Shown here piece by piece: positions 3,152-47,375 of a DNA stretch of 64,000 bases; the first letter of the stretch is position 1, and each line of letters starts with the position of its first letter. A program made the position numbers and the translations under genes. Origin of the DNA: an uncultured Candidatus Saccharibacteria bacterium (lineage in GTDB: Bacteria; Patescibacteriota; UBA1384; CAILIB01); contig CAZQKK010000002.1 of NCBI GenBank assembly GCA_964593885.1, positions 157,204 to 221,203 on the forward strand, read 5' to 3'. Under the pieces are notes generated by a model, which saw only the letters and a list, made by a program, of their open reading frames with translations, searched no databases and was not told the DNA's origin.

Positions 3152-4249
3152 ATGGCCGTCTCCGCATTCCTCGCTGCAATCCAGCAGCTCAGCCTCGAGA
3201 AAAACATCCCAGAAGAGCGCATTTTTGAAACCGTTGAAGCCGCAATTGCCGCTGCCTACAGGCGTGACTACGGTCAGCCGGAACAACACATCCGGGTCAC
3301 CATGGACCGTGAAGACGGTGGTTTCAAGGTATTCCAGGTCTTCGACGTAGTAGAAACCCCAGAAGAGGTTGAGGAAGACCAGCGTCAGATCACCGTTGAG
3401 GAAGCCCGCAAAGACAAGGCAGACCTCAACGTAGGGGATGAGTACATCATTTCGCTCCCATTCCACGACGATTTTGGCCGCATCGCCGCCCAGACCGCAA
3501 AGCAGGTTATCGTTCAGCGCATCCGCGAGGCGGAGCGAGAGATCCTCTTCGAGGAGTTCAAGCAGAAGGAGAACCAGCTCCTCAACGGTTCAGTACAGCA
3601 GCTTGAGGGAGACACCGTCGTGGTGAGCCTCGGCAAGGTAAACGCCATCATGCCACCTCGTGAGCAGATCAGGGGCGAATACTACAGCACTGGTCAGCGC
3701 ATCCGCGTCTTCGTTAAGGAAGTTGCAGAGAGCGGCCGCGGACCTCAAATCATCGTTACCCGCTCAGACTCACGTTTCATTGAAGCCCTCTTCGGTATGG
3801 AAGTACCTGAAATCCAAGCTGGTACCGTTGAGATTCGTGCAATCAGCCGTGAAGGCGGATCACGTACCAAGATGGCAGTATTCTCAGACAACGACGCCAT
3901 TGATCCAGTTGGGTCATGTGTTGGTCAGCGTGGAACCCGTGTCCAGGCAGTCCTCAACGAGATTGGTGACGAGAAAATCGACATCATCCTCTGGGACGAC
4001 AACACCGAGCAGTTCATTAGGAACGCCCTCTCACCTGCAAAGATTCGCGCCATCCATATTGATGAGGAAGCCAAGGTTGCAAAGGTTGAGGTTGACGTAG
4101 ACCAGCTCTCCCTTGCCATCGGACGTGGTGGCCAGAACGTCAGGCTCGCCTCAAAGCTTACCGGCTACGCCCTCGATATTCTCCGTGACGAAATCCCAGG
4201 CGAAGCAGCAGAAGCAGCGACAGCACCTGAGGCCACCCCAGAAGCGTAA
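3152..4249 (+). CDS. nusA: transcription termination/antitermination factor NusA
   Basis: 365 aa. N-terminal MAVSAFLAAIQQLSLEKNIPEE. S1 region IRVFVKEVAESGRGPQIIVTRS. KH regions GSCVGQRGTRVQAVLNEIGDEKIDII and IGRGGQNVRLASKLTG. Confidence 0.9.
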   Translation: MAVSAFLAAIQQLSLEKNIPEERIFETVEAAIAAAYRRDYGQPEQHIRVTMDREDGGFKVFQVFDVVETPEEVEEDQRQITVEEARKDKADLNVGDEYIISLPFHDDFGRIAAQTAKQVIVQRIREAEREILFEEFKQKENQLLNGSVQQLEGDTVVVSLGKVNAIMPPREQIRGEYYSTGQRIRVFVKEVAESGRGPQIIVTRSDSRFIEALFGMEVPEIQAGTVEIRAISREGGSRTKMAVFSDNDAIDPVGSCVGQRGTRVQAVLNEIGDEKIDIILWDDNTEQFIRNALSPAKIRAIHIDEEAKVAKVEVDVDQLSLAIGRGGQNVRLASKLTGYALDILRDEIPGEAAEAATAPEATPEA

Positions 4250-4260
4250 CTTCATACCCC

Positions 4261-6711: not shown

Positions 6712-6720
6712 ATAACTACA

Positions 6721-7971
6721 ATGGCTAACCTACAGACCCCACGGGGCACCCGAGACATCCTGCCAGACCAGCAGGCTCTCTGGGATTTTGTTAAAGCTAC
6801 CGGCGTACGTGTCTCTAGCTCACTTGGCTTCGCCCCCATCACTACCCCTACCTACGAGTACCGTGAGCTCTTTGAGAGAGCTATTGGCGAAGGTACCGAC
6901 GTCATGGATAAAGAACTCTTTTTGCTGAGGAGCAGGGGAACCGAAGCCGGCAAAGAAGAGTACGCCCTTCGCCCTGAAGGAACCGCTGGTATTGTCAGAT
7001 CATACATTGAGAATGGCATGCACACCTGGCCACAGCCGGTGAAACTCACCAGTTTCATCAACTGTTTCAGGTACGACAGACCTCAGAAAGGCAGGTACCG
7101 CGAGCACGTCCAGTTTGACCTTGAGCTCTTTGGAGAGAAGGGTCCCTTTTCTGACGCGCTAATCATCCTCGCCACCTACAGGTTCCTCACCGAGCTTGGT
7201 CTCAAAGACCTCAAACTCCAGCTCAACAGCCTTGGAGTGCTAGAGGAGCGAAACGCCTACCAGGCTGCACTTGTAGCAGCCCTTACGGATAAAAAATCAG
7301 AGCTCTCAGAGGATTCTCAGAAGCGCCTCGAGACCAACCCGCTGCGTATCCTAGACAGCAAAGATACTAAGGATCAGGCGCTGCTAGGGAGCATTCCAGC
7401 CCTTTCTACCTTCTTCAGCCCAGAGACAACCGAGCACTTTGCAAAGGTGCAGGAGTACCTGAAAGCCTGGCAGATTCCTTTTGAACTCAACCCCCGCCTG
7501 GTGCGCGGACTAGACTACTACTCGCACACCGCCTTTGAGTGGACCACCGAAGGAGCTGGAGGACAGCAGTCATCACTTGGGGGAGGTGGCAGGTACGACG
7601 GCCTGATCACCCAGCTGGGTGGTAAAGACTGTGGCGCCGTTGGTGCAGGCATCGGCCTCGATAGGGTAGTAGAGGAGCTTGAGAGGCAGGGAATTACCCC
7701 GCCTGCTGACACCAGCACTGAAACAGTTGCAGTTATTGTTGCTTCACCCGCTGCAGCCGTTACGGCAGCAGGGCTTGTGAGCAAGTTCCTCTGGGAGGGA
7801 AAGAAAGTTGTCGCCAACTTTGACCGCGAGAACGTAGGTTCCCAGTTCAAGCAGGCAGACCGCGCCGGAGCAGCAAAAGCCTACATCCTAGGGGACGAAG
7901 AGCTGGCAAACCACACCGTTACCGTAAAAGACCTCACCAACGGGGAGCAGCACACAGAGCCACTAACCTAG
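6721..7971 (+). CDS. hisS: histidyl-tRNA synthetase
   Basis: 416 aa. MANLQTPRGTRDILPDQQALW class II motif 1 region. HisRS-specific GGGGRYDGL. Confidence 0.9.
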   Translation: MANLQTPRGTRDILPDQQALWDFVKATGVRVSSSLGFAPITTPTYEYRELFERAIGEGTDVMDKELFLLRSRGTEAGKEEYALRPEGTAGIVRSYIENGMHTWPQPVKLTSFINCFRYDRPQKGRYREHVQFDLELFGEKGPFSDALIILATYRFLTELGLKDLKLQLNSLGVLEERNAYQAALVAALTDKKSELSEDSQKRLETNPLRILDSKDTKDQALLGSIPALSTFFSPETTEHFAKVQEYLKAWQIPFELNPRLVRGLDYYSHTAFEWTTEGAGGQQSSLGGGGRYDGLITQLGGKDCGAVGAGIGLDRVVEELERQGITPPADTSTETVAVIVASPAAAVTAAGLVSKFLWEGKKVVANFDRENVGSQFKQADRAGAAKAYILGDEELANHTVTVKDLTNGEQHTEPLT

Positions 7972-8002
7972 CCTCAAATCTGGTGACGTGGTAAGCTGGG
8001 TT

Positions 8003-8566
8003 ATGGAAACACCAATCGTCCTCATCACCGGATTCTCAGGCGCTGGCAAAACTACCCTCTACGAAAACCTCATGGCCCTGCACGGAGATCAGCTCCACAG
8101 GGTCATTTCTACTACCACCAGAACTCCCCGTGAAGGCGAGGTAAACGGCAAAGACTACCACTTCACCAGCCCCGAGGCATTCATAGCCGATAGGGACGCG
8201 GGGATGTTTTTTGAATCCAGCCAACACTACGGACACTACTACGGCTCAACCTCGCCAGAGTTTATTTCGCTCCCAGATGGCAAGATTCCACTCTACATCT
8301 TGGACCCCAAAGGGGTGAGCGAATTTACCAGTAGGTACCCAAACGCAGAGCCTTTCTTCCTCCACATCTCGCGGGCAGAGCAACTCCAACGTCTCCAGAA
8401 CCGAAATCACGAGGAACACCTCATCCAAGAGAGGCTCCAGCGGTATGACCTTGAGGACGCAATACTCAAGGCAGAAGCTGACAAACTCCATATTCTTCCC
8501 CATGAAACTGTCGAGGATCTCAATAATGCCGTAGAATACATGAGAAGAAAGCTAAACCTAGGATAA
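8003..8566 (+). CDS. gmk: guanylate kinase
   Basis: P-loop GFSGAGKTTL. TTRTPREGEVNGKDYHFTSPEAF GMP-binding signature. ORF table start 7988 is a GTG, ATG at 8003 preferred. Confidence 0.85.
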   Translation: METPIVLITGFSGAGKTTLYENLMALHGDQLHRVISTTTRTPREGEVNGKDYHFTSPEAFIADRDAGMFFESSQHYGHYYGSTSPEFISLPDGKIPLYILDPKGVSEFTSRYPNAEPFFLHISRAEQLQRLQNRNHEEHLIQERLQRYDLEDAILKAEADKLHILPHETVEDLNNAVEYMRRKLNLG

Positions 8567-8573
8567 CTACGAC

Positions 8574-9926
8574 ATGAAACTAACGTTCTGTGGGGCAAAC
8601 CGTGAGGTAACTGGATCCTGCTACCATATCGCCACTTCATCCGCCAAAATTGTCGTAGACTGCGGCATGTTCCAAGGTGGGAGATTCGCTGAAGAAAAGA
8701 ACCACCAAGACTTTCCCTTTGATGCAAGTAAGGTTGATGCCGTAGTGCTCACCCACGCCCACTTTGACCACACCGGCCGCCTGCCAAAGCTCTACCACGC
8801 TGGATTCAGGGGAAAGATCTTCTGCACCTCGCCAAGCAGTGCCCTGGCAATGATTACACTGAGGGATGCCGTACACCTCATGGACGAAGAAGCTGAGAGG
8901 CACAACGTTGAACCTCTCTACACTGCCGAAGACGTTGAGCCTCTAGAGGAGATGTGGGAGCACATTCCGTACCACGAAGAGCGCCAGATTGTTCCTGGTG
9001 TTTCTGTCATCCTCGCCGACGCAGGGCACATCCTCGGATCAGCGTGTGTAAGGATCATGGCAGATGGAAAGTCTGTAGTGTTCTCTGGTGACCTCGGAAA
9101 CACCCCAGTTCCACTCCTCAAGAGCGCCGAGTGCCTCATAGGCGCCGACGTAGTGGTGATTGAGTCTACCTACGGCAACCGTGTCCACGAGGGCGTAGAG
9201 CAACGGGTTGATTTCCTTCGCCGCGCCATCCTGGATACGGTGAGGAACAAGGGAGTGCTGATGGTGCCAGCTTTCGCCATTGAGCGAACCCAGGAGCTCC
9301 TCTACGAGCTCAACCACCTCCACAGCGAAGGCAAGATTCCAAACCTCCCCATCTTCCTAGATAGTCCCATGGCCATCCGGGCAACCGAGGTGTTCAGAGC
9401 TAACACCGATTTCCTTGACGAGGTAGCCAAGGCAGACCTCAACCGTTACGGTGACCTCTTCAGCTTCCCCGGACTCGTGAGTACCCCAAGTAGCACCGAA
9501 TCCAAGCACATCCTCCAGGTGAAGGGTCCCAAGGTGATTGTGGCAGGATCGGGAATGATGAACGGTGGAAGAATCCTCCACCACCTCAAGAACTACCTGG
9601 AGCAAAAGACCACCATCCTCGCCATCATTGGCTTCCAGGTTGAAGGCAGCTTGGGACGAAGGCTCCACGAGGGAGAACGTGACGTGAAGATCTTCGGCCA
9701 AGATGTCCACGTCCATGGCGAGGTCCGAAGCTGCGGCGCCTTCTCAGGTCACGCAGACTACCCACGCCTCATGCAGTGGCTCCACTGCTTCCAGAGCCAA
9801 CCTCCAAAACAGGTGTACGTCACTCACGGTGAAGAACGTGCAGCCGTTGCTTTCTCACAGTCTGTCCAAGAGCAGCTCAACATTCCAACCACCGTTCCTA
9901 GTCTTGGCGATACGGTTGAGATTTAA
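8574..9926 (+). CDS. metallo-beta-lactamase / beta-CASP fold ribonuclease (RNase J-like / CPSF-like)
   Basis: 450 aa. HAHFDHTG motif 2. Later Asp/His motifs (DAGHILGSA, GHAD). Size and layout typical of beta-CASP RNA-metabolising MBL enzymes. Confidence 0.7.
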   Translation: MKLTFCGANREVTGSCYHIATSSAKIVVDCGMFQGGRFAEEKNHQDFPFDASKVDAVVLTHAHFDHTGRLPKLYHAGFRGKIFCTSPSSALAMITLRDAVHLMDEEAERHNVEPLYTAEDVEPLEEMWEHIPYHEERQIVPGVSVILADAGHILGSACVRIMADGKSVVFSGDLGNTPVPLLKSAECLIGADVVVIESTYGNRVHEGVEQRVDFLRRAILDTVRNKGVLMVPAFAIERTQELLYELNHLHSEGKIPNLPIFLDSPMAIRATEVFRANTDFLDEVAKADLNRYGDLFSFPGLVSTPSSTESKHILQVKGPKVIVAGSGMMNGGRILHHLKNYLEQKTTILAIIGFQVEGSLGRRLHEGERDVKIFGQDVHVHGEVRSCGAFSGHADYPRLMQWLHCFQSQPPKQVYVTHGEERAAVAFSQSVQEQLNIPTTVPSLGDTVEI

Positions 9927-11871: not shown

Positions 11872-13359
11872 ATGCGAGACATCGTGCCAAAGCGGTTTAC
11901 CCATCACCGTCAGACGGCTGAGGATGTTCTTTTGGTACCTGCAGTTGAGACCACACGCCTCCAAGAAAAGATTCATAAGCTCAACCTATTCTTTGGCCAC
12001 CTAGCTACTCGCTTCAGCGAGCACGACCAAGAAAGTCAGTTTGTCGTCAAAACACCAAAGATCAGGCCAAAGAAGGTTAAGAAGGCACTAACTCCACTCA
12101 AAGTCAGCATCCCGGTTTCGCCAAAAGCTGGCATTGAGAAGGTGAAGAAACACGCTGCGAAGGCTAAACGACACCTCGGTACCCCCATTGGAAAGGTAGC
12201 TGCAGTTAACAGCCTTGCCCTCTTAGCACTTTTTGCCTTTGTGATGCAGCGCCAGGTACCTGCTTCAGATGGCGCCCTAACCCGTGATGTTGGAGCCGCA
12301 ACACAGCAGACACTCAGGCAGTACCAGCCGAGGGTCGGGGTAGTTGCCAACGCCATCGCCCCATTTAACGAAACTGCTGCTACTCAGGAGCGAAAGTTAC
12401 CCCTCTACACCTGGGTAACCCCGTGGAACCTTGATGCAGTTAAGGCTAACCTTGGAAACTACAAGGGACTCTCTGCCTTCTGGGTAACTGTAGGAGAGAA
12501 TGGGAGTGACCTCAGTGCCAAGGGAGATTGGTCAGGTTGGGAGAACCTCATGAGTCAGCGAAAAGAGGGGCAATCAACAGCCATCACCATCAGCGGAGAC
12601 CCAGACTTCACGTACCTCACGCTCAGCAACGCTACCTCCCAGCAAGACTTCATCACCAATGTCTCAAAACTCCTCCAGGATAGGGGAGCCTCTGCCGTAG
12701 ATATCAACTTTGAAGCCCTCGGTTCTGAGAACAAGGAGCTCTTCACCGCTTTCATCAGAAACCTCACCGCTGCCCTCAAACCACAGCAGAAGCAGGTAAT
12801 TGTCACCCTCGAGGCGAGAATTGCCAACCTGGTCCCCATGGACTGGCGTAACCTCGGCCAAATTGCCGACGAGCTCAGGATCATGGCCTACGACTACCAC
12901 GCCAGAACTACCGGCACTCCGGGTCCTATCGCCCCGCTTGGGTGGGTTAAAGAGGTGGTTGACTACGCCGTCAGTCAGGTTGATCCAGGTAAGCTTGTCA
13001 TAGGACTTGGAAACTACGGATACAACTGGGTTGCCCCTGAAGTTGCAGACCAAAGCTGGCAGGGAATTGGCCTCAGCTTTGAACGTGCAACCACTCTTGC
13101 AGGAGAGCTTGAGGTACCTATCCTCAAGGGGAGCGGCATAGATGATAGGGGCTACGACATTGGTACCATTCCATACTTTACCTACACCGACAAAACTGAC
13201 GGAAAAACCCACAGCGTTTGGTTTGAGGACGCAGTTTCGCTCCAGGAAAAAGTCTCGCTCCTCTCCCAGTACCCACTGAAGGGCGTGGTATTCTGGTCTG
13301 TAGGGATTGGGGACTCACAATTCTGGATAAACCGCCAACCAACATCAACCACACCATAA
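11872..13359 (+). CDS. membrane-anchored GH18-family glycosyl hydrolase (YaaH/YdhD-like)
   Basis: 495 aa. One N-terminal TM (AVNSLALLALFAFV). GH18-like DINFEAL catalytic segment, MAYDYHA, VIGLGNYGYNW and C-terminal VVFWSVG. Confidence 0.65.
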   Translation: MRDIVPKRFTHHRQTAEDVLLVPAVETTRLQEKIHKLNLFFGHLATRFSEHDQESQFVVKTPKIRPKKVKKALTPLKVSIPVSPKAGIEKVKKHAAKAKRHLGTPIGKVAAVNSLALLALFAFVMQRQVPASDGALTRDVGAATQQTLRQYQPRVGVVANAIAPFNETAATQERKLPLYTWVTPWNLDAVKANLGNYKGLSAFWVTVGENGSDLSAKGDWSGWENLMSQRKEGQSTAITISGDPDFTYLTLSNATSQQDFITNVSKLLQDRGASAVDINFEALGSENKELFTAFIRNLTAALKPQQKQVIVTLEARIANLVPMDWRNLGQIADELRIMAYDYHARTTGTPGPIAPLGWVKEVVDYAVSQVDPGKLVIGLGNYGYNWVAPEVADQSWQGIGLSFERATTLAGELEVPILKGSGIDDRGYDIGTIPYFTYTDKTDGKTHSVWFEDAVSLQEKVSLLSQYPLKGVVFWSVGIGDSQFWINRQPTSTTP

Positions 13360-39654: not shown

Positions 39655-39692
39655 AAAAATACCAGGTTCACAAACCTGGTATTTTTTTAGGT
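39655..39692 (+). terminator. rho-independent terminator after secF
   Basis: aaaaataccaggttcacaaacctggtattttttt. Confidence 0.7.
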
Positions 39693-39713: not shown

Positions 39714-40259
39714 GTGTTGATACCTGAACTTGAACAATTTGCCGTGATTGTAGAGGATGAAGAGACACTCCGTGCCATCTACCGCTACATCAACAGCCTC
39801 ATTCCCAGACGAACCCAGAAGAACATTGTCACAAAGGCATGTACAACGGGGAGACTCACTGATCTGACTGAAGACGAAGTTGCACTGGTTACTGAGGTCA
39901 ATGGATACCTCACGAGCGGCAGGATCGCCATCCTTCTGACGCATGACCCAGGCAACTCGCTTGGTTACACCTTCATCGCCCTGTCACCTAACTGGTGTCG
40001 CATCCCGTACCTTGGGCACTGTTTGCTCCAACCAGAACCTGGTAAATCAAGTTTCTGGCTCAGACAGCCAGTGGCGGTAGCAAAGCGCCTGTACACTCTC
40101 AAATCTACTATTGGTGACGACTTTGTCTATACCTCCAAGGAGGGGAGATGGTGCACGATCGTCACGCAGTGGGAGAAGGATGTCTTTCTCAGGGCATACG
40201 TAGCTGGAACTGACACCACCATCTACAACATCATTACGACTGACGATAGCGACGCCTAG
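39714..40259 (+). CDS. hypothetical protein (GTG start, apparently leaderless)
   Basis: 181-aa ORF. Extended -10 tggtatagt (39696-39704) ends 9 nt before the GTG. No assignable motif. Confidence 0.3.
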   Translation: MLIPELEQFAVIVEDEETLRAIYRYINSLIPRRTQKNIVTKACTTGRLTDLTEDEVALVTEVNGYLTSGRIAILLTHDPGNSLGYTFIALSPNWCRIPYLGHCLLQPEPGKSSFWLRQPVAVAKRLYTLKSTIGDDFVYTSKEGRWCTIVTQWEKDVFLRAYVAGTDTTIYNIITTDDSDA

Positions 40260-40585: not shown

Positions 40586-43500
40586 TTAGAGCGAAATACT
40601 ACCCCCTTCTTCCAGGGACTGCCCTCCTCGCACGTCGCTCTGTGCAACTTGAGGTTGTACACTTCCCGCTTCTTGCGCGGCACCAATACGTAAGTTCGGT
40701 TCTTGTTCGGTAAGGGGAAGAGGAGCCTCGGGGGAGGTTTGAGCTTCAGCGGCTGCCGCTTTTCGAGCTTCGTACTCAGCAAGTGTTTCAGGTAGGTACC
40801 ACTTGAGGCCACCCCGCTGCGCCACCTGTTTGTATGCCCAGCCGTCCATCACCTTAGGTGGTCGCTCCTTAGCTGATTTCTTTACCTTTGTCCCCTGGCC
40901 TTCCTCGGGTTGTGCCACGAGAGCTTCAGCTACTGGTTGAGAAACTACCGGTAGTGGGGCTTCCTCGTACAACTGTGGCAGTGGCTGAGGTTCTACAACC
41001 ATAGGTAGCTCAACCTTCTCAGCAATTGTAGGGGTATGATTCCCCTGTTTTTCTACAGGTTTGCTAACCTGGAAATTTTGGATCTGTGGAGCAGGAGTAG
41101 CAGGCTTAGCTGCCTGGACTGGCTGAGCTGGTTGTTGTTGGCGTTGCTGAGGTTGGGGCGATGGGGTGCGGGGAGCCTGGGCTGTAGGTCTCACCTGCTG
41201 AGGTTGAGCCTGTTGGACAGGTTGATTTTGCGGTGGTGCTGGGCGTGTCTGAGCCAGAGGTGTTGGAGCACCTGGCATTCCCCCACCCGGCTGGGTAAGG
41301 ATGGCGGCAGCGGCTTTTGATGCCTCTTCTGCCTGACGCTTCTGGCGGTACCCTGAAACCTCGTCAATGATCGCCTCTACTTCAGCCCTAGGTTTGGCAT
41401 AGGTCTGGCGCGAAAATGCAATCACCTGTTCCCTGAGACTTCCCTGCACTTCACGTGGCATCAGGGTTCGAGCAGAGAAAGGTTGCGCGGCGAAACCGTC
41501 CACCAGGAGCCTGGTGTAGATGTGTCCTTTCTCTAGGGAAATCATATCCGATACCTCGAAGGTCGGGGCGAATTCCTTCTGGAGAGACTCTGCATCAGGG
41601 GTACCTAACCTGAAGAGAATCATTGTTCCAACGTTTCCAATGACAGCATCCTTAACCGTATCTGAGAGCTGGGCAATGTACTGGTGGGCCATGGTGAGGC
41701 CAAGGTTGTACTTTCGCGCCTCAGAGAGAATGGTGGCAAATGAATCGGTTGCAAAGTTTTGGAACTCATCCACGTAGAGGAAACAGTCTGGGCGTTGGTC
41801 TGGTGGTACATCGGCACGAGACATGGCGGCAAGCTGGACGCGAGTTACAATCATCGATCCCAGGAGAGCCATGGCGTCTTCACCAATCTTCCCCTTTGAG
41901 AGGTTTACAATGAGAATCTTCTTCTCGTCCATTGCCTTCCTGAAGTTTACCGTGGAGGTTGGCTGACAGGTGAGGTTTCTAATCATTGAGGACGAGAGGA
42001 ACTGCCCAACCTTGTTGAGAATTGGCCCGATGGCCTCTGACTGCTGCTTAGGCTCCATGCCGTTCCACTCGTACTGCCAGAAGGCGCGCACCACCGGATC
42101 AGTTACGTTGGCTACCACGCTCTCCCTGAACGGCCTGTCGGTGAGCATGCGTGGGATTCCCATCATCGTGCTGTTTGGGCTCTCCAAGAGTGCCAGGGTA
42201 GTATTCCTCAAGATGTACTCAAGACGCGGTCCCCAAGAGTCTCCAAAGATCTTCTTGAGTACTCCCACAAAACCAGAGGCCACTAGTCCCCTGAACGCCT
42301 CCCCCACCTGCTCGAGGGGATTGAAGGAGATTGGCCAATCAGTATCAGCAGGGTCAATCACGATCACGTCCTGGATTCGCTCCGCTGGGATGCTATCCAC
42401 AGCCTTGTCGGCAAACTCGCCGTGGGGATCAACAATCACAATTCCCCTACCCAGCTGAATGTCATCGATAGCCATGTTCTCCAGAAGCGTAGACTTTCCG
42501 ACACCAGACTTTCCGATGATGTAGATGTGACGTTTCCTATCGTCCATCTTGATACCAAAAGTTTCAGATTTGTTACGGAAGTCTGTGTTTCCAATTACCG
42601 TGAGCTCGTGGGGGTCCATCTGACTCTTGAGGGGGATGTTGAAAGGAGCTTCCCCTTTCTTACTCCCCGCCCGTGAGATGGCGTTTGCTTCAACCGTTAC
42701 CGATGGGAAGTGGTACACCGAGGCTAGCTCCTCAATGTTGAGGATGCTCCCCTTCTCTTCAAACTCGCGGTTGATGTACTGCTCCCAGCTGCCGAAGTCG
42801 TCGATTTTTACTTCACCCCCGGTGAAACCGTTGAGGTTAGTGGTATTGAACTGCTTGAAAGCTCCAATGAGCGAAAGGGTTCTGGCGCGTGCCACGTTCT
42901 CCTGCTCGGCAATGCTGACCATTCTGAAGATGGTCTCGTAGCCAAGCTTGGTAATCTTCCCTTCAATTCCCTTGAGGGCTGCTTCTTCAGGAGCTGAGAG
43001 CTTTGGCGCCTCGGCTGGTGCTGCGGCTCCCCCAGCGCTTCCCGGTGAAACCACCTCCTGCGCGACGAGGGCAAGGAGCTTTCCAACCTTCCCAACGGAT
43101 TTAAGGGCACCGCTGGCACTGCCTGGTTTTTGGCCGGCCCTGATTGCCTGCACGTAGGAAACACCTTTATTTTGCCAGTTATCCCCTACTGGTCTCACCA
43201 CAATTTGCAGCCAGAGATGTTCGCCCACCTCAAGGTTGCCAAGCACTGCGGTAATACCGGCGAGTGGGTCTACCTCTAGGCTGGTGTAGGTTTTTATGGG
43301 GTAGACATCCTCTTTGGTGAGCTTGAGCCTGCTGGTTGCCACGTGCATGCCAGCCAAGTCTATCTCCTGGGTGTAGTCTGAGGCGTGCTTAATCTGGAGA
43401 TCTGGGTACTGCGCGTAGAGCTGACCTTCAATGAACTCTCGCATGTGGAGAGGGCAGAAGAGGTAGAAAATGATGGAATCTTTGGAGGCGACAATCTCAA

Positions 43501-43687
43501 AGCTCAGGTGCTCCTGAATAATAGGATCTTCCCGGTAGATACCGTGAACCGCTGCAAAGAACTGCTCAGCTGAGCTGGCGTTCTTCTCGTTGTTCTTTGG
43601 AACCTGGATTGCGAGCACAATAAAGGTCTGGGAAGCGAGAAAGGCTGCCCGTCGCTTGAGATCTGCCGCGCGACGCCAGAGTACCAT
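40586..43687 (-). CDS. membrane-associated FtsK/HerA-superfamily ATPase (DUF87 / VirB4-TraC-like), paralog 1, with long Q/P/A-rich C-terminal tail
   Basis: 1033 aa. Walker A IIGKSGVGKSTL about 395 aa from N-terminus. DPHGEF motif about 25 aa later. Walker B-like FLYVDEFQNF. AT/MAHQY. About 260-aa low-complexity tail ending in a compact domain (GWAYKQVAQRGGLKWYLPETLAEYEA). Confidence 0.7.
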   Translation of the reverse strand: MVLWRRAADLKRRAAFLASQTFIVLAIQVPKNNEKNASSAEQFFAAVHGIYREDPIIQEHLSFEIVASKDSIIFYLFCPLHMREFIEGQLYAQYPDLQIKHASDYTQEIDLAGMHVATSRLKLTKEDVYPIKTYTSLEVDPLAGITAVLGNLEVGEHLWLQIVVRPVGDNWQNKGVSYVQAIRAGQKPGSASGALKSVGKVGKLLALVAQEVVSPGSAGGAAAPAEAPKLSAPEEAALKGIEGKITKLGYETIFRMVSIAEQENVARARTLSLIGAFKQFNTTNLNGFTGGEVKIDDFGSWEQYINREFEEKGSILNIEELASVYHFPSVTVEANAISRAGSKKGEAPFNIPLKSQMDPHELTVIGNTDFRNKSETFGIKMDDRKRHIYIIGKSGVGKSTLLENMAIDDIQLGRGIVIVDPHGEFADKAVDSIPAERIQDVIVIDPADTDWPISFNPLEQVGEAFRGLVASGFVGVLKKIFGDSWGPRLEYILRNTTLALLESPNSTMMGIPRMLTDRPFRESVVANVTDPVVRAFWQYEWNGMEPKQQSEAIGPILNKVGQFLSSSMIRNLTCQPTSTVNFRKAMDEKKILIVNLSKGKIGEDAMALLGSMIVTRVQLAAMSRADVPPDQRPDCFLYVDEFQNFATDSFATILSEARKYNLGLTMAHQYIAQLSDTVKDAVIGNVGTMILFRLGTPDAESLQKEFAPTFEVSDMISLEKGHIYTRLLVDGFAAQPFSARTLMPREVQGSLREQVIAFSRQTYAKPRAEVEAIIDEVSGYRQKRQAEEASKAAAAILTQPGGGMPGAPTPLAQTRPAPPQNQPVQQAQPQQVRPTAQAPRTPSPQPQQRQQQPAQPVQAAKPATPAPQIQNFQVSKPVEKQGNHTPTIAEKVELPMVVEPQPLPQLYEEAPLPVVSQPVAEALVAQPEEGQGTKVKKSAKERPPKVMDGWAYKQVAQRGGLKWYLPETLAEYEARKAAAAEAQTSPEAPLPLTEQEPNLRIGAAQEAGSVQPQVAQSDVRGGQSLEEGGSISL

Positions 43688-43698
43688 GGTGGTTTTTC

Positions 43699-44421
43699 TT
43701 ATGCTGGATTATCGATCACCGCCCAGCGGGCAATACCAGTTGCTGGGATCATAATCATTACCCTATCCCCTGCTTTAATGCTGTAGAGAGCCATGTAGTA
43801 GGTAACACATGCGGTGAGGATGCTGTAGGTGTGACCCTCGTCACTGTCTACTACGTAGTGGTTACCTTCCATGCGCAAGACTCCCCCAACGTTCCTTCGC
43901 TCAACCGGTCCAAGCTGCTTGTAGACGTACTTGCCATCTGAGCCAATGTAGAGCTTGAGTGGGTCTCCCTCAATGAGCTTTGACTTGCTGGCGTAGTTTG
44001 GTGGCACCTGGTAGCTCTTGCCGTTGCCGTCTACCATCCGCTCACCATCAAAGATTCCCTCAATGCCATCGTCCTCGTTGTTGTACTGATTTGAGAAAGA
44101 GTATGAGGCTGGCGTCATGAACCCTTGGAGCGAACCGCTCTGGGGGGTAAAGCCTTCGCCACTTCCAGAGAACATGCCTCTGAGTGTCCTAATGTCGTGC
44201 TCAAGTGACTCCAAGATTTTGAGGGCTCGTTCTTGGCTGAAGCCGAGAGCTGGGGCTTCTTCCTTAAACTCCCCTTGGTGGTCTTCGCCATCTGTTGTCT
44301 GCTGGTGACCCTCACTCTGGAGCTCCTCAACCGAGGCATCGGCCTCATCAGGTGTAGTTGGAAGTTGGAGCTCTACAAGCTCAGTAACCTCATCAGATGT
44401 AGCAGCTTTCTTTGGACTCAT
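43699..44421 (-). CDS. hypothetical protein, acidic N-terminus, beta-rich C-terminus
   Basis: 240-aa ORF sandwiched between the two ATPase paralogs with 11- and 25-bp spacers. Confidence 0.4.
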   Translation of the reverse strand: MSPKKAATSDEVTELVELQLPTTPDEADASVEELQSEGHQQTTDGEDHQGEFKEEAPALGFSQERALKILESLEHDIRTLRGMFSGSGEGFTPQSGSLQGFMTPASYSFSNQYNNEDDGIEGIFDGERMVDGNGKSYQVPPNYASKSKLIEGDPLKLYIGSDGKYVYKQLGPVERRNVGGVLRMEGNHYVVDSDEGHTYSILTACVTYYMALYSIKAGDRVMIMIPATGIARWAVIDNPA

Positions 44422-44446
44422 ATCGGTTGTATTACGTATTTATCAA

Positions 44447-46942
44447 CTATGCGCCAATACTAGCAGATTTTGCGCGCATGCGCACCTCTGCCTCCACGAT
44501 GTCCCTATCCCTCCCGTACTTTAGCCTTGAGAGTTCCCTAATCGCCTCCCCTACCTGGACGTTTTCGTGGGGGTCTGGCGGGTAGGTACTCACATTGAAA
44601 GGTTTACTTGGAGCACTATCGATCATCAACCTCACGTAGTAGTTGTACTTCTCTACGTTGATGAGGTCATCGGTATTGAGTGGGTCCATGATCTTCACCA
44701 TGAACTCAGCGTCTGGTGCACCAATTCGCCACGAGATGATGGTACCAACGTTTCCAAAGACGGCGTTACGGGTGTCATCGTCAAGCTGCTCAATGTACTG
44801 GTGGGTAATGTTAAGCGAAAGGGCGTACTTCCTCGCCTCAGAGAGAATGGTGGCGAAGGTCTTTGAGGTGAAGTTCTGGAACTCATCCACGTAGAGGTAG
44901 AAAGGAACCCTCGATTCCTCTGGCTGGTTCTGACGCGAGAAGGCGGCAATCTGAATCTTACTCGAGATAATCATTCCCAAGAGGGCGGCTGACATATCGC
45001 CCAAGAGACCTTTAGGGAGTGCCACCAGGAGGATCTTCTTCTCGTCCATGAGCTGCCTGAAGTTGAAGGCACTGTTCTGCTGCCCCACAATTGGCCTCAT
45101 GATGTCTGAAGCGGTGAACTGGGTTAGCTTGCTGGTGATGTAGGGAACGATGTTCTGAAGTGCCGCTTCTCCCCCGGCCTTCTCAGCCTCTTTGACCCAG
45201 AAATCAACAACCGTCTGGTTACGGCACTTAGAGAGCTTGTACTTCCTGAAGGCATCGTCAGAGAGCACGCGAGGAATTTCCATCAAGGTACTCCCCGATT
45301 CTGGGTCTTCCATGATCAGGAGTGCGGCATTACGTAGGTACTGTTCGAAGATTGGTCCGCCGGTGGCCTTGAGGTCGTAGAGCTTATCAAAGATGGAGAT
45401 AATCTCGTTGATTACCATGGTCTTCTGCTCTGGGTAGGCAGGGTCAAACTCTAGCAAGTTGAGGGCGATAGGACGCGCGGTGTCGGCAGGGTTGAAGTAG
45501 ATGACATCCTCGGCACGCTCTTTAGGGATGTGGCGAAGAATCCATTCCACCGCATCTCCGTTTGGGTCCATGTAGCAAACACCGTGTCCAGCCCTAATAT
45601 CCTGGAGGATGAGGTTCTGGTAGAGGTTTGTTTTACCTACACCTGTTTGTCCGATGGCGTACATGTGACGCATCCTGTCCTTGCCGTTGATGTAGATTGG
45701 CACATCGGTTCCCCTAAATGAGCTGAAGCCCATGAGGGCACCAGACTGCGGCAGGTTGATAGGTGGCGGAAGTCTTTTTGCCCCAAGCCAGTGGACGTTT
45801 GGCGTGTCTAGATGACGGTTTGGGAAGTGGAAGAGGCTGGTAAGCTCCTCGGTGTTGAGGACGAAGGATTTCTGACTTGGCGAGGCACTCCTCAAGATGT
45901 AGTCCACCAGCAGCCGTCGGTTGTCTCGCCCCGATGCCTTGAAGCCGTTTGCCTCGGGAGACTGGAACTGGGAGAAAGCGCTGAGCATGGTCTGCACCTG
46001 GTTCTGTGCTTCAGGAACACTTGCAGCTCTGGCCACAACTCTAATTTGGGTTTTAAAGCCTAACTTCGCCCCTTTCTCAACCAAGAGCTTCGCCTGTTGT
46101 TCTTGCATGGCGGTGAGCCTGACGTTTGCCTTAGAGGTGTTCATCGCCTCATTGTTCTCAGATTCCTGAGCGGTGCCCGCAGCCGCTTTTCCAATATCAG
46201 TAGCAAGCGCCAGGCTCTTCTGGGCAAACCCATTCTGGTGGGTAAAGTCTTTCCCCTGCTGCACGTTGTGGAGAGCTTTCTGGATGCCATTCTGCCAGGA
46301 TTGGTCGGTTGGCTGGACGATCACCTGAATAGCGGCCTTGCCGTCAGCAAGCTTTGAAAGGACGTTGGTGAGGACGTTGAGTGGCTCACCTTCCATGGTT
46401 CGGTAGGTTTTGATGGGGAAAATCTCAGGCTTCATCAGCTCAACTGAGGCAACAGCACTCTGACCTTCGGGCTCTAAGAAGAGGTCGTAGTCTGAGGCTA
46501 GCTCAATCTGGGCCGAAGGGTACTGGGCGTGAATCTGTCGCTCAAGAGCTGGAAGGTGTTCTTGGGGGCCGGTGACGTAGAAGAAGATCTCGCCATGCTG
46601 GGCAACAATCTCAAAGCTAAATGTAGGCTGACCGTCCCACAGTTTCTTCTTGAAATCTGATTCATAGAAGTGCTGGAGCGACGCGTAAATTGGCTCCATG
46701 AGCGAGGTGAGCTCTTTTGGATCACGCTTGCTGTCATCTTCGTCCCCCTGCTTAGGGAGTGTCACTTTGAGCGCCCTAATCCCAAGCTGGTGGGAGTACC
46801 TAACCTTGAGGCGAAGGGCGAGAAACTTGAGGTACCCAAAAACACCCGCCGAGGTGAGGAGGATGAGAATGACGAGTACCACAATACTACCCACTGAACT
46901 GGACGAAGTAGCTGCCCCGGTACTAAAATCTGTTCCCTCCAT
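44447..46942 (-). CDS. membrane-anchored FtsK/HerA-superfamily ATPase (DUF87 / VirB4-TraC-like), paralog 2
   Basis: 831 aa. N-terminal TM IVVLVILILLTSAGVFGYL. Conserved N-domain (SFEIVAQHGEIFFYVTGP...AQYPSAQIELASDY). Walker A AIGQTGVGKTNL. DPNGDA. FYLYVDEFQNF. Collinear with paralog 1 up to the ATPase C-terminus. Confidence 0.7.
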   Translation of the reverse strand: MEGTDFSTGAATSSSSVGSIVVLVILILLTSAGVFGYLKFLALRLKVRYSHQLGIRALKVTLPKQGDEDDSKRDPKELTSLMEPIYASLQHFYESDFKKKLWDGQPTFSFEIVAQHGEIFFYVTGPQEHLPALERQIHAQYPSAQIELASDYDLFLEPEGQSAVASVELMKPEIFPIKTYRTMEGEPLNVLTNVLSKLADGKAAIQVIVQPTDQSWQNGIQKALHNVQQGKDFTHQNGFAQKSLALATDIGKAAAGTAQESENNEAMNTSKANVRLTAMQEQQAKLLVEKGAKLGFKTQIRVVARAASVPEAQNQVQTMLSAFSQFQSPEANGFKASGRDNRRLLVDYILRSASPSQKSFVLNTEELTSLFHFPNRHLDTPNVHWLGAKRLPPPINLPQSGALMGFSSFRGTDVPIYINGKDRMRHMYAIGQTGVGKTNLYQNLILQDIRAGHGVCYMDPNGDAVEWILRHIPKERAEDVIYFNPADTARPIALNLLEFDPAYPEQKTMVINEIISIFDKLYDLKATGGPIFEQYLRNAALLIMEDPESGSTLMEIPRVLSDDAFRKYKLSKCRNQTVVDFWVKEAEKAGGEAALQNIVPYITSKLTQFTASDIMRPIVGQQNSAFNFRQLMDEKKILLVALPKGLLGDMSAALLGMIISSKIQIAAFSRQNQPEESRVPFYLYVDEFQNFTSKTFATILSEARKYALSLNITHQYIEQLDDDTRNAVFGNVGTIISWRIGAPDAEFMVKIMDPLNTDDLINVEKYNYYVRLMIDSAPSKPFNVSTYPPDPHENVQVGEAIRELSRLKYGRDRDIVEAEVRMRAKSASIGA

Positions 46943-46949
46943 TTGTATG

Positions 46950-47375
46950 CTAGTGGTGAGCGGCCTGGCTTAGGGCTACGAGGTTTTCTTCTGTGGGATT
47001 ACCCACTGCTGCATGAATCTCAGCAGAGGCGTCCGGGATGATGGTGCCCTCTGTTGCAGGCAAGGCTGGTTGAGTGTCTTCTTCATGGAGCGCTTCTACA
47101 ATTGGCTCTGTTCTATGTTCCACAACTTCAGGTTGCGGAAGTGGTGTTTGCCCAGTAACCACTACTTCCTGGGCAACCTCTGGTTCTAGGATTGCTTCGG
47201 TAGCCGGGATCTCAACAAGATGTTCAGTAGAAACTTCTGGTACCTGTTCCACAAGCTGTGGCGCAACAACCTCTCCACCAACTGCAACTTCAGCAGTATC
47301 CCCCTGCTTGTGTTTGAGAGCTTCGTCCCAAGAGATAACTTGGCGGTCAGGTTGTGGGATGGGTTGCTCGGACAT
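46950..47375 (-). CDS. small highly acidic low-complexity protein
   Basis: 141 aa, rich in E/V/P/Q. Start codon overlaps the stop of the upstream 826-aa gene (ATTATGA). Confidence 0.4.
   Translation of the reverse strand: MSEQPIPQPDRQVISWDEALKHKQGDTAEVAVGGEVVAPQLVEQVPEVSTEHLVEIPATEAILEPEVAQEVVVTGQTPLPQPEVVEHRTEPIVEALHEEDTQPALPATEGTIIPDASAEIHAAVGNPTEENLVALSQAAHH

Follow-up and report, generated by a model that had tools for sequence, protein, structure and literature searches.

The window analysed here is a 64,000-nucleotide stretch of a contig from an uncultured Candidatus Saccharibacteria bacterium (GenBank assembly GCA_964593885.1, contig CAZQKK010000002.1, positions 157,204 to 221,203). 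It carries two large ATPase genes, P1 and P2, both found at the coordinates given in the original prediction, which had also described them as paralogs. BLASTP comparison bears this out, with 35% identity and 54% positives over 777 aligned residues (E=6e-135), and the motifs FEIVA, AQYP, GKSGVGKST/GQTGVGKTN, DPHGEF/DPNGDA, VDEFQNF and SEARKY..HQY do align between the two proteins. The kinship is visible at the DNA level as well: the two antisense open reading frames pointed out earlier (41520-41777 and 44643-44894) share the end ...ASERMVA..FWNSST, and nucleotide identity is 69% in the 138-nt Walker B/SEARKY block (41663-41800 versus 44780-44917) and 49% across 770 aligned codons. By these comparisons P1 and P2 are true paralogs, from the branch of the FtsK/HerA superfamily that is used by type IV secretion. 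A third gene lying between them, g240, had been overlooked and belongs to the unit. The features of the locus, beginning at its 5' end, are as follows.

50286..50313, minus strand: terminator-like hairpin, 12 bp with 8 G-C and a T-rich tail (consensus match only)
49862..50206, minus strand: probable first gene of the unit, encoding a ~114-aa DUF5663-like protein (sub-threshold DUF5663 match, E=0.019)
47375..49855, minus strand: g826, a large protein with Gly-rich hydrophobic segments, in the same tight gene string (ORF)
46950..47375, minus strand: g141, small and very acidic (pI 4.2), immediately 5' of P2 (ORF)
44447..46942, minus strand: P2, a membrane-anchored P2-type DUF8128/T4CP-like ATPase of 831 aa (ORF, Pfam and NCBIfam T4CP matches, phrog_5156)
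46826..46894, minus strand: predicted N-terminal transmembrane (TM) helix of P2 (residues ~17-39; Kyte-Doolittle 2.69), followed by K/R-rich juxtamembrane residues
45743..46810, minus strand: DUF8128 N-domain of P2 (residues 45-400), VirB4-NTD-like fold
45629..45652, minus strand: Walker A of P2, GQTGVGKT (residues 431-438); G431, G434, G436 and K437 100% conserved
44870..44899, minus strand: Walker B block of P2, YLYVDEFQNF (residues 682-691), then SEARKY (701-706); D686, E687, R704 and K705 100% conserved
43699..44421, minus strand: g240, the 240-aa partner, in which an acidic, disordered N-terminus precedes a helix (residues 63-85) and, at the C-terminus, an OB fold (ORF, AF2 model)
43702..44070, minus strand: OB-fold domain of g240 (residues 118-240)
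40586..43687, minus strand: P1, a P1-type DUF8128/T4CP-like ATPase of 1033 aa, without a TM in this lineage (ORF, Pfam, phrog_5156)
42548..43624, minus strand: N-terminal DUF8128 domain of P1 (~residues 22-380), 30% identical to the P2 N-domain and, through this homology with the modelled domain of P2, VirB4-NTD-like
42491..42514, minus strand: Walker A of P1, GKSGVGKS (residues 392-399); Gly and Lys positions 100% conserved in 120 P1-type proteins
41753..41782, minus strand: Walker B block of P1, FLYVDEFQNF (residues 636-645), then SEARKY (655-660); D640, E641, R658 and K659 100% conserved
40589..41320, minus strand: C-terminal tail of P1 (residues 790-1033; Pro/Gln/Ala-rich linker, basic module, acidic end; P 0.15, Q 0.15, A 0.14)
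40748..40897, minus strand: basic module of P1 (residues ~931-980), consensus KPRv.k..nI.G..YKE.TqRGG.KWY.GE, pI 9.9, conserved in P1-type tails

A compact chromosomal gene unit

Intergenic gaps in the operon range from -1 to 25 nt. Transcription of the unit upstream probably stops at the hairpin at 50286..50313, which would set the 5' boundary of the ATPase operon. In its AF2 model, the OB fold of g240 is of the S1/cold-shock class, a nucleic-acid type; the g240 family has the invariant motif NYASKSKL.EGD and no Pfam domain, and BLAST found a g240-like gene downstream of a P2-type gene, on the same strand, in 22 loci from several lineages. At the upstream position held here by g141, other loci have small acidic helical proteins of two same-strand families (20 and 17 loci), the analogy with g141 being one of position. 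We considered whether these small upstream genes are VirB3 analogues and rejected the idea, as g141 and both families are acidic and helical and have no TM. No match for g826 was found in Pfam, NCBIfam, PHROG or PADLOC; its position is occupied in close relatives by large syntenic proteins of 957-1172 aa, and the 957-aa protein of one of them (L006) gave a weak BLAST match (E=2e-32). The ~114-aa first gene is 53% identical to a 122-aa gene of locus L005, and DUF5663 genes lie upstream of P2 in L001, L088 and L089.

The unit is flanked in the window by housekeeping genes (SecDF, PPase, TGT, L10, L1, Pth and RF1). As first noted, no other T4SS gene occurs among the window ORFs scanned, VirB3, VirB6 and VirB8 included, and no relaxase was found among them. 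A mobile-element reading was discarded given the housekeeping flanks, with no tRNA/Rfam feature and no GC anomaly; GC content is unremarkable throughout the region. We take the unit for a chromosomal function passed on by vertical descent rather than for a mobile element.

Domain architecture of the two ATPases

Each protein combines an N-domain of the VirB4 NTD fold with a C-terminal P-loop motor of the VirD4/TraD/TrwB type. The original prediction had assigned the P-loop to a DUF87/VirB4/HerA type and judged the position of Walker A to resemble VirB4/TraC/ConE rather than VirD4 coupling proteins. Its DUF87 part stands, with P1 scoring 38.3 bits against a Pfam cut-off of 23.2; the VirB4 class does not, as profile searches place the motor with VirD4, TraD and TrwB. 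In Pfam, the ATPase domain matched T4SS-DNA_transf (8.6e-9), TrwB_AAD_bind (3.1e-8) and TraG-D_C (4.5e-5), and P1 lies above the cut-offs for all three as well as DUF87 (PF02534, 35.2 bits with a cut-off of 20.1; PF10412, 33.3 with 20.5; PF12696, 23.8 with 22), while P2 reaches 21.1 bits for PF10412 (cut-off 20.5) and 21.5 for PF12696, slightly under the cut-off of 22. In NCBIfam, VirD4-like and TraD models matched the ATPase domain at 5.5e-12 to 5.8e-15 and VirB4 models at 4e-5 to 3e-4; the T4CP matches cover partial stretches only, at 45-55 bits against equivalog cut-offs of 250-650, so that the curated full-length T4CP models fall below cut-off (CD1115, 45.3 versus 250 bits; SXT_TraD, 54.8 versus 366). 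The VirB4 family model TIGR00929 gave 19 bits against a cut-off of 643.1, and Pfam returned no PF03135/CagE_TrbE_VirB match. When the family profile was searched against the PDB, DotL (1e-6) and TrwB (1.7e-6) were the best sequence matches and no VirB4 chain appeared at E<=1. On these profiles the motor is of the VirD4/TraD/TrwB coupling-protein type, not VirB4. The Walker A Lys, the Walker B Asp-Glu and the conserved Arg/Gln are 100% conserved in both paralog classes (120 sequences each), and both motors retain their full set of catalytic residues.

FtsK/SpoIIIE, HerA and P1/P2 belong to the same P-loop superfamily, and they have further traits in common, namely DUF87 ('HerA central domain') above cut-off in P1, a membrane-associated motor and a long low-complexity linker. 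P1 and P2 differ from them in that no FtsK_SpoIIIE motor or gamma (winged-helix) domain was matched in Pfam or NCBIfam at E<=0.1, and no HAS-barrel or NurA-like neighbour was seen. NCBIfam HerA equivalogs scored 11.7-14.3 bits against a cut-off of 800, and of HerA only the generic DUF87 P-loop region matched in Pfam.

The model of the P2 N-domain matches TrwK/VirB4 by two independent methods, the next matches being clearly behind, and as modelled this domain has the VirB4 NTD fold. Homology at the sequence level was tried and rejected: with the VirB4 of pTiC58 (AtuVirB4) as the reference, the family profile aligns with the P-loop only, and hhalign of the N-domain profile against a 9-sequence VirB4 profile was non-significant (E=0.62), although a permissive hhalign path of the N-domain is collinear with AtuVirB4 residues 51-406. 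Because the sequence-level comparison is non-significant, the likeness can be claimed at the fold level only, and it may reflect fold convergence. The comparison with VirB4/TrwK (R388) comes down to a common NTD fold: neither the VirB4 NTD nor the VirB4 family models are significantly similar in sequence, the motor is nearer to T4CPs, and there are no VirB3/6/8 neighbours. VirB4 dimerisation runs through its NTD (PMC9259494). As for Pfam membership, PF26449 (DUF8128) is a precomputed match in 240 of the 240 homologues listed; the local Pfam copy gave no match for P1 or P2, which are assigned by proxy through these homologues, P2 of the window sitting in the 90% cluster represented by P0001, which carries PF26449.

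Conjugative T4CPs (VirD4/TraG/TraD/TrwB/DotL) have in common with P1 and P2 a P-loop motor with intact Walker A, Walker B and Arg. Whereas T4CPs typically have a two-helix N-terminal TMD, P2 has a single TM and then a ~350-aa VirB4-NTD-like domain before the motor, and P1 has no TM; P1 and P2 are, moreover, a pair of paralogs encoded on the chromosome and inherited vertically, with no relaxase or MPF genes nearby. The K/R-rich residues that follow the P2 helix conform to the positive-inside rule, and the remainder of P2 would therefore be cytoplasmic. A strong N-terminal TM in P2 and none in P1 had been predicted; P2 does have one (strong segment at residues 17-35), and no hydrophobic segment was detected in P1 at KD>=1.6, but the loss is lineage-specific: ~52% of P1-type proteins keep a TM, and an N-terminal TM helix is found in 97% of P2-type proteins. 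That around half of P1-type proteins have a TM of their own runs against a P1/P2 heterodimer. A tie between TM loss and tandem placement was also considered and dropped, since the P1 of locus L087, which directly adjoins P2, does have a TM.

The P1 tail is 244 residues long and carries the module KVMDGWAYKQVAQRGGLKWYLPE at residue 945. Such a Q/P/A-rich linker with a C-terminal module had been described as gained by this paralog; both are present, but they cannot be recent gains because they occur in 120/120 P1-type homologues. The basic module is in every one of these tails and in 0 P2-type proteins, and the median tail length is 252 residues in P1-type versus 12.5 in P2-type. A wall-binding role, once proposed for the module, is hard to reconcile with a tail placed after a cytoplasmic motor domain. 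The module and the g240 OB domain both have G..YKQ/E, and the first was examined as a piece of the second; hhalign shows no relation. TraD and DotL bear C-terminal extensions, which the P1 extension resembles, and in conjugative coupling proteins such extensions recruit partners or substrates.

Two paralog classes, their spread and their phage relatives

The 240 homologues split into 120 P1-type and 120 P2-type proteins, with the P2-type forming one pure NJ clade (branch 0.32) and each class having its own signatures (GKSGxGKS/DPHGE in P1-type versus GKTGxGKT/DPNGD in P2-type). A lineage-specific duplication, which phylogeny had been expected to reveal or exclude, is contradicted by the two clean clades of this NJ tree: the duplication is ancient. 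P1 and P2 represent the two old paralog classes into which a family spanning the Patescibacteria is divided. A scan of GTDB found no close relative among the matches listed, the best being 47% identical. The order P2, small gene, P1 is kept in L001, L005 and L087-L089; a universal tandem arrangement was rejected, P1 lying <=10 kb from P2 in 3 of the 80 GTDB loci among the matches listed. Physical linkage is lineage-restricted, judging by this count and by an HMM search that placed a g240-like gene beside P2 in just 13 of the 66 eligible GTDB loci among the matches listed. Flanks in other loci include SecY-Adk-Map, DnaX, NDK, RNase J and CysRS.

Patescibacteria make up a large, mostly uncultivated share of bacterial diversity and have tiny genomes; a pair of ~830-1030-aa ATPases in nearly every one of them must therefore have an important function. 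The family has already been counted in the literature as 'T4CP homologues' (Quinonero-Coronel et al. 2025, PMC12102498), which, like PF26449 (DUF8128), are the same family as P1 and P2, and in the available part of that report it is never characterised. There it is handled as generic VirD4 homologues, with no mention in that part of a fold for the N-domain, of two paralog classes, of a P1 tail module, of an OB-fold partner or of phage relatives. The paper counts 5,713 homologues in 2,918 of 3,035 genomes, ~two per genome, only 148 of them near virB4; Table S3 has close pairs of t4cp2-profile matches at ~63% coverage (e.g. genes 83/85, 604/605 and 273/276). A separate true VirB4 with TrsD and VirB3 neighbours is reported as 2,474 homologues in 2,417 genomes (PMC12102498). 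In S. epibionticum, according to the same paper, T4SS genes are essential and the t4cp homologue is non-essential for epibiotic growth, a report that goes against a translocase reading. The published record contains them only as unexplained 'T4CP homologues', unlinked to T4SS and dispensable for epibiotic growth in one species (PMC12102498).

Outside the phylum, P1 residues 58-788 match positions 76-820 of the 824 in phrog_5156 (E=1.9e-93), and P2 residues 75-823 match positions 44-807 (E=1.7e-88). The Bacillus phage proteins concerned, 0305phi8-36 orf201, SPO1 gp27.4 and phage G gp156, are homologous to P1 and P2 over their full length, N-domain included: P2 and SPO1 gp27.4 are collinear over residues 71-726 (pairwise, E=4e-22), and phage G gp156 matched at E=1e-42. 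Like P1, the phage coupling ATPase has no N-terminal TM domain, and its similarity to VirD4 is restricted to the C-terminal ATPase, a trait shared with P1 and P2 (PMC3357382). The phages have a single copy, only ~22% identical, whereas Patescibacteria have two paralogs. The phage genes sit in replication modules, the next gene downstream in SPO1 being annotated 'replication initiation by nicking', and adjoin a MobC-like relaxase/nickase and an MreB/partition-like gene; in contrast, no homologue of the relaxase (phage gp27.3) or of the partition gene was found in the window or in Patescibacteria loci. We looked for a g240-like gene in the phage loci and found none, and an IMG/VR scan gave 12 loci with ATPase-domain matches alone. 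These ATPases of a relaxase-linked 'DNA translocation operon' have been proposed as relaxase-coupled translocases, and deletion of the operon had no laboratory phenotype (PMC3357382).

Candidate functions

Taken together, the data suggest a conserved membrane-associated nucleic-acid-moving machine across ultrasmall Patescibacteria, and on balance we favour a reading in which P1 and P2 form a membrane-docked hetero-oligomeric nucleic-acid translocase. P2 would be anchored in the cytoplasmic membrane through its one N-terminal helix, which P1 of this lineage lacks, and the pair would oligomerise into a ring motor translocating nucleic acid, probably single-stranded. With its helix and OB fold, g240 could bind the substrate or pass it on, and the long, presumably disordered P1 tail with its conserved basic module could recruit a partner or substrate. 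The assembly may dock onto the T4SS that Patescibacteria encode elsewhere, or it may act alone. The lineage-restricted linkage and the lack of relaxase or partition homologues in the window and the Patescibacteria loci count against this reading. An anonymous DUF is in this way turned into testable hypotheses (that the two assemble as a heterodimer, that the substrate is nucleic acid and that the tail mediates an adaptor role) that rest on the VirB4-type N-domain with a coupling motor, the two ancient classes, the OB-fold partner and the phage homology, and that are relevant to how VirB4 and VirD4 diverged. A bolder version, in which P1, P2 and g240 make up a Patescibacteria-wide, T4SS-independent nucleic-acid translocation machine of P2/P1 heterodimers arranged as a hexamer through the VirB4-like N-domains, seems to us distinctly unlikely. 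If true, the pairing of a VirB4 NTD with a T4CP motor would have survived from an intermediate stage of the VirB4/VirD4 split, and the machine could move host-derived or environmental DNA/RNA across or along the membrane in organisms that cannot make their own nucleotides.

P1 and P2 could instead be conventional T4SS coupling proteins, encoded away from virB4 and feeding protein effectors or pilins, with no nucleic-acid substrate; we think this unlikely. The motor matches T4CP profiles, its VirB4-like NTD could dock VirB3-/VirB8-like partners, and the P1 tail could be an effector/adaptor receptor as in DotL, a top PDB match. T4CP genes are often distant from virB4 (PMC12102498), and a protein substrate is suggested for the Patescibacteria T4SS because most of its clusters lack a relaxase (PMC10633639; PMC12102498). 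Against this stand the S. epibionticum contrast between essential T4SS genes and a dispensable t4cp homologue, the small number of homologues near virB4 (148 of 5,713; PMC12102498), the nucleic-acid-type OB fold of the co-encoded g240, and the nearest full-length relatives beyond the phylum, which come from phages and sit in DNA replication/relaxase contexts with no T4SS.

The translocase reading also has to be weighed against FtsK/SpoIIIE-like housekeeping DNA pumps that arose by exaptation of a coupling protein and serve to segregate the chromosome or to clear DNA from the division site. FtsK likewise has a membrane-anchored motor with a long linker, Pro/Gln-rich in the present case, and the family is near-universal and vertically inherited in core-gene neighbourhoods, with DnaX immediately downstream in 20 loci; PMC12102498 raises the exaptation of t4cp to some other function as a possibility. 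We nevertheless regard such a role as improbable, since no FtsK_SpoIIIE or gamma/winged-helix domain was detected in the searches above, FtsA and FtsZ of the window are ~20 kb off and unlinked, the Saccharibacterium TM7x has a separately annotated ftsK (PMC10768705), and the S. epibionticum homologue is reported non-essential (PMC12102498).

Less probable still, and disfavoured, is the original view, that of VirB4-type ATPases for assembly or pilus biogenesis in a T4SS that is cryptic or degenerate. The N-domain fold, a Walker A near residue 400, as in VirB4, and the weak NCBIfam VirB4 matches would agree with it, but VirB4 models fall far under their cut-offs (19 versus 643 bits for TIGR00929), neither a CagE_TrbE_VirB Pfam match nor a VirB4 chain emerged from the profile searches, the window has no VirB3, VirB6 or VirB8 gene, and Patescibacteria own a separate bona fide VirB4 (PMC12102498). 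Finally, a mobile-element remnant or a HerA/MADS-type anti-phage defence ATPase has almost no probability in our judgement: homologues do occur in phages, and PADLOC mad8 (E=3e-20) and HerA models (E=7.8e-8 to 2.3e-5) do match, but only in the ATPase domain, and nearby genes include neither an integrase, a relaxase, a nuclease or a sirtuin nor any other MADS component. Against this reading stand also the housekeeping flanks, a GC content that does not stand out in the region, the presence of the family in nearly all of the phylum (PMC12102498) and synteny kept over deep divergence.

Domain architecture of the paralogous ATPases

Genes and hairpin of the ATPase unit
40586-43687, minus strand: P1, ATPase ORF of 1033 aa
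43699-44421, minus strand: g240, 240-aa ORF between P1 and P2
44447-46942, minus strand: P2, ATPase ORF of 831 aa
47375-49855, minus strand: g826, 826-aa protein with several Gly-rich hydrophobic segments (e.g., residues 240-271)
50313-50286, minus strand: strong terminator-like hairpin ahead of the packed gene string

Judged by sequence and predicted structure, P1 and P2 are coupling-protein-type ATPases with a VirB4-like N-terminal domain; the pair is ancient and has an OB-fold protein as its partner. Pairwise alignment gave 35% identity across 777 aligned residues (E=6e-135), confirming the paralogy described in the original prediction, and every shared motif quoted there was found in register. 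The echo of this relationship reported at the DNA level in antisense ORFs was also real, with nucleotide identity of 69% in the 138-nt Walker B/SEARKY block versus 49% over all aligned codons. The catalytic sites are intact; the Walker A Gly/Lys, the Walker B Asp-Glu, the SEARKY Arg-Lys, and two Gln residues are 100% conserved (120 proteins per paralog class), and both proteins are presumably active ATPases.

P1 exceeds the curated Pfam cut-offs for DUF87, T4SS-DNA_transf, TrwB_AAD_bind, and TraG-D_C; P2 exceeds that for TrwB_AAD_bind and lies narrowly under those for DUF87 (22.6 versus 23.2) and TraG-D_C. The top NCBIfam models for both were VirD4-like CD1115 and TraD families (E=5.5e-12 to 5.8e-15), VirB4 models gave E=4e-5 to 3e-4 at most, and no curated NCBIfam equivalog cut-off was reached by either protein. 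PDB sequence searches with the single proteins matched TrwB and DotL, and a 64-sequence family profile matched DotL (1e-6), TrwB (1.7e-6), and then HerA-like helicases; this profile found no VirB4 chain among PDB sequences at E<=1, with TrwK present in the library. By these matches, the motor resembles type IV secretion coupling proteins (T4CPs; VirD4/TraD/TrwB) and is not VirB4-like. The original prediction had favored VirB4 over VirD4; its remark on the position of Walker A stands, but its family assignment does not.

An AlphaFold2 model of the P2 N-terminal domain (residues 45-400, 64-sequence alignment) was confident (pLDDT 88.4, pTM 0.86). Its best Foldseek matches were 14 TrwK chains (E=2e-7 to 4e-4, probability 1.00), with a gap before the next. 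Since the model contains no P-loop and no P-loop ATPase other than TrwK was matched in this search, the similarity is to the VirB4 N-terminal domain, residues 15-400 in TrwK (PMC9259494), and the domain is modeled with a VirB4-like fold. By sequence, its similarity to VirB4 was not significant, and alignment with Agrobacterium tumefaciens VirB4 was restricted to the P-loop. Comparing the N-domain profile with a 9-member VirB4 profile gave E=0.62, and the permissive path was collinear (36-345 versus 51-406), with similar motifs at its end, just before Walker A. PF26449/DUF8128 is a precomputed Pfam match in all homologues listed; our own Pfam search of P1 and P2 did not return it. P2 begins with a single strong transmembrane (TM) helix (residues 17-35, Kyte-Doolittle 2.69) that would anchor it in the membrane, and, by the positive-inside rule, the Lys/Arg-rich stretch after this helix predicts a cytoplasmic location for the remainder of P2. 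The predicted architecture is thus a TM helix, a VirB4-N-domain-like fold, and a T4CP-like motor. A hydrophobicity search found no TM helix in P1, whose 244-residue Pro/Gln/Ala-rich tail includes a basic module (pI 9.9) and has acidic residues at its end.

Gene unit and chromosomal setting

The hairpin is followed by a tightly packed string of a DUF5663-like gene, g826, g141, P2, g240, and P1, the last five with intergenic gaps of -1 to 25 nt. The order large protein, small protein, P2, g240-like protein, P1, running from TGT to SecDF, is kept in relatives with as little as ~47% identity (L001, L005, and L087-L089). The g826 protein had no match in Pfam, NCBIfam, PHROGs, or PADLOC, and the syntenic large proteins of relatives (957-1172 aa) are weakly similar to it (23% identity for the L006 protein). 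In the place next to and upstream of P2 that the small gene g141 takes in the window, 37 loci (20 + 17, within L007-L086) carry, on the P2 strand, one of two unrelated families of small acidic proteins (125-195 aa) with a conserved C-terminal helical domain and the motifs ...IPGVN.FFLEQEAKIKTD... and ...KG..HAV.VA....D.Y.LD..HD.L.; neither family has a Pfam match.

The recurrent partner is g240, an OB-fold protein whose family is confined to Patescibacteria, lacks a Pfam domain, and shares the invariant core NYASKSKL.EGD. BLAST places homologues downstream of a P2-type gene, in the same orientation, in 22 loci, and an HMM does so in 13 of the 66 GTDB loci eligible among those listed (12 within 2.5 kb), including loci without P1. 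The model shows an acidic, disordered N-terminus, a helix at 63-85, and a beta-rich C-terminal domain (pLDDT >93); as this domain is mildly acidic (pI 5.6), nucleic-acid binding by the modeled fold is plausible but not assured. One clade of Patescibacteria has an extra gene between the g240-like gene and P1, encoding a 342-aa protein with Sigma70_r4 and HARE-HTH domains; a DUF1290 gene comes next after P1.

Sigma70_r4/HARE-HTH protein (342 aa)
L088, 6815-7843
L089, 6756-7784

The unit is flanked by housekeeping genes (SecD/SecF, DHH pyrophosphatase, TGT, L10, L1, Pth, RF1), and others occur elsewhere in the window (RNR, UvrD, ClpB, FtsA/FtsZ, RmuC). No VirB4 was found in the rest of the window, in agreement with the original prediction that no other T4SS core gene is present, and the region has no tRNAs, Rfam features, or GC anomaly. 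In the GTDB loci listed, P2 neighbors SecY-Adk-Map, CysRS, DnaX, NDK, or RNase J. The unit is chromosomally and vertically inherited and has a core function. The tandem state is lineage restricted, with P1 within 10 kb of P2 in only 3 of 80 GTDB loci listed, and may be the original arrangement; many short contigs (e.g., 7,804 and 9,803 bases) hold genes of both paralog classes together.

Other features of the window
11872-13359: GH18 chitinase-like gene
39655-39686, plus strand: hairpin of 14 bp with a T-tail immediately after secF, likely an intrinsic terminator
39714-40259, plus strand: 181-aa ORF with no family match, between the secF hairpin and the convergent P1 3' end
56751-57683, minus strand: L1 ORF of 310 aa
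59704-62920, minus strand: two large proteins side by side with DUF11, DUF7507, and related repeat domains, likely surface or adhesin-like

In the L1 ORF, the best match to the Pfam L1 profile is limited to residues 193-303 (profile positions 81-198); L1 of relatives is likewise 308-309 aa, and an unknown 152-aa ORF separates L1 from L10 in the window.

Age and spread of the two classes

The best 240 matches divide into 120 P2-type (median 835 aa) and 120 P1-type (median 1033 aa) proteins, with a minimum between-class distance of 0.59 and within-class means of 0.38 and 0.46, and the P2 class forms a single pure clade (branch 0.32) in their neighbor-joining tree. The duplication is therefore an ancient split, older than the divergence of many lineages. 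The tail after the core has a median of 252 residues in P1-type versus 12.5 in P2-type proteins (120 each), and its module, KPRv.k..nI.G..YKE.TqRGG.KWY.GE, is found in 120/120 P1-type proteins; the tail and module noted in the original prediction thus exist, but as a class feature, not a gain by this paralog. The TM contrast between P1 and P2 likewise holds, with TM loss in P1 lineage-specific, since ~52% of P1-type and 97% of P2-type proteins keep an N-terminal TM.

Among the matches listed, the nearest (93% and 89% identical) are from metagenomes, soil among them, and Patescibacteria are the source of every homologue that has an informative source name. The lineages listed by a GTDB scan are at least Uhr-, Falkow-, Berkel-, Komeili-, Moran-, Doudna-, Nomura-, Peri-, and Magasanikbacteria, with Paceibacterota and others. 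The N-domain alone retrieved 1,826 representatives at 50% clustering, and in these the domain always starts near the N-terminus. The family has already been catalogued, though not characterized: Quinonero-Coronel et al. (PMC12102498) report 5,713 VirD4-type T4CP homologues, of which no more than 148 lie near virB4, across 2,918 of 3,035 Patescibacteria genomes, state that exaptation could not be excluded, and include in Table S3 close t4cp2-profile pairs (gene positions 83/85, 604/605, 273/276, and 324/330).

Phage relatives and a possible mode of action

P1 and P2 have phage relatives. PHROG family phrog_5156 matches both end to end (E=1.9e-93 and 1.7e-88), and full-length tblastn matches include Bacillus phage G gp156 (E=1e-42), SPO1 and relatives (gp27.4), Wes44, PBC1, Geobacillus GBK2, and Brevibacillus MRSA107. 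P2 and SPO1 gp27.4 (E=4e-22) are collinear over residues 71-726, so the homology takes in the N-domain.

Phage loci with P1/P2 homologues
L099 (Wes44), 7067-9211
L100 (SPO1), 3914-9424
L101 (GBK2), 6659-9229

The modules that contain the phage genes are replication or early ones, and the annotated order in SPO1 is "partition protein" gp27.9, gp27.4, and, directly downstream, gp27.3, "replication initiation by nicking." A phage "DNA translocation operon" has been put forward by Pathria et al., made up of a MobC-like relaxase, proteins resembling MreB and VirB6, and the P1/P2-related coupling ATPase, which resembles VirD4 only in its C-terminal ATPase domain and has an N-domain without TM helices; deletion of the operon gave no laboratory phenotype (PMC3357382). 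The Patescibacteria loci have no homologue of this relaxase or of the partition protein, and the phage loci have no g240-like gene.

VirB3 wraps the N-terminal domain of the central VirB4 subunit and anchors that subunit in the membrane (PMC9259494). By analogy, the anchored P2 and the locally anchorless P1 may form heterodimers through their N-domains and assemble into a ring, where each paralog would fill one of the two non-equivalent positions. A nucleic-acid substrate is suggested by the T4CP-type motor, by the OB-fold partner, and by the phage relatives with their links to relaxases or replication, and the disordered P1 tail with its basic module could recruit a partner or substrate. The unit may work for the Patescibacteria T4SS, which is encoded outside it, or on its own; in S. 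epibionticum the T4SS is reported to be essential but the t4cp homologue is not (PMC12102498).

Twelve IMG/VR viral contigs (L102-L113) encode relatives whose match is confined to the ATPase half (29-42% identity over query residues ~400-820), indicating that motor-only versions with the YVDEFQN/ILSEARKY signatures exist.
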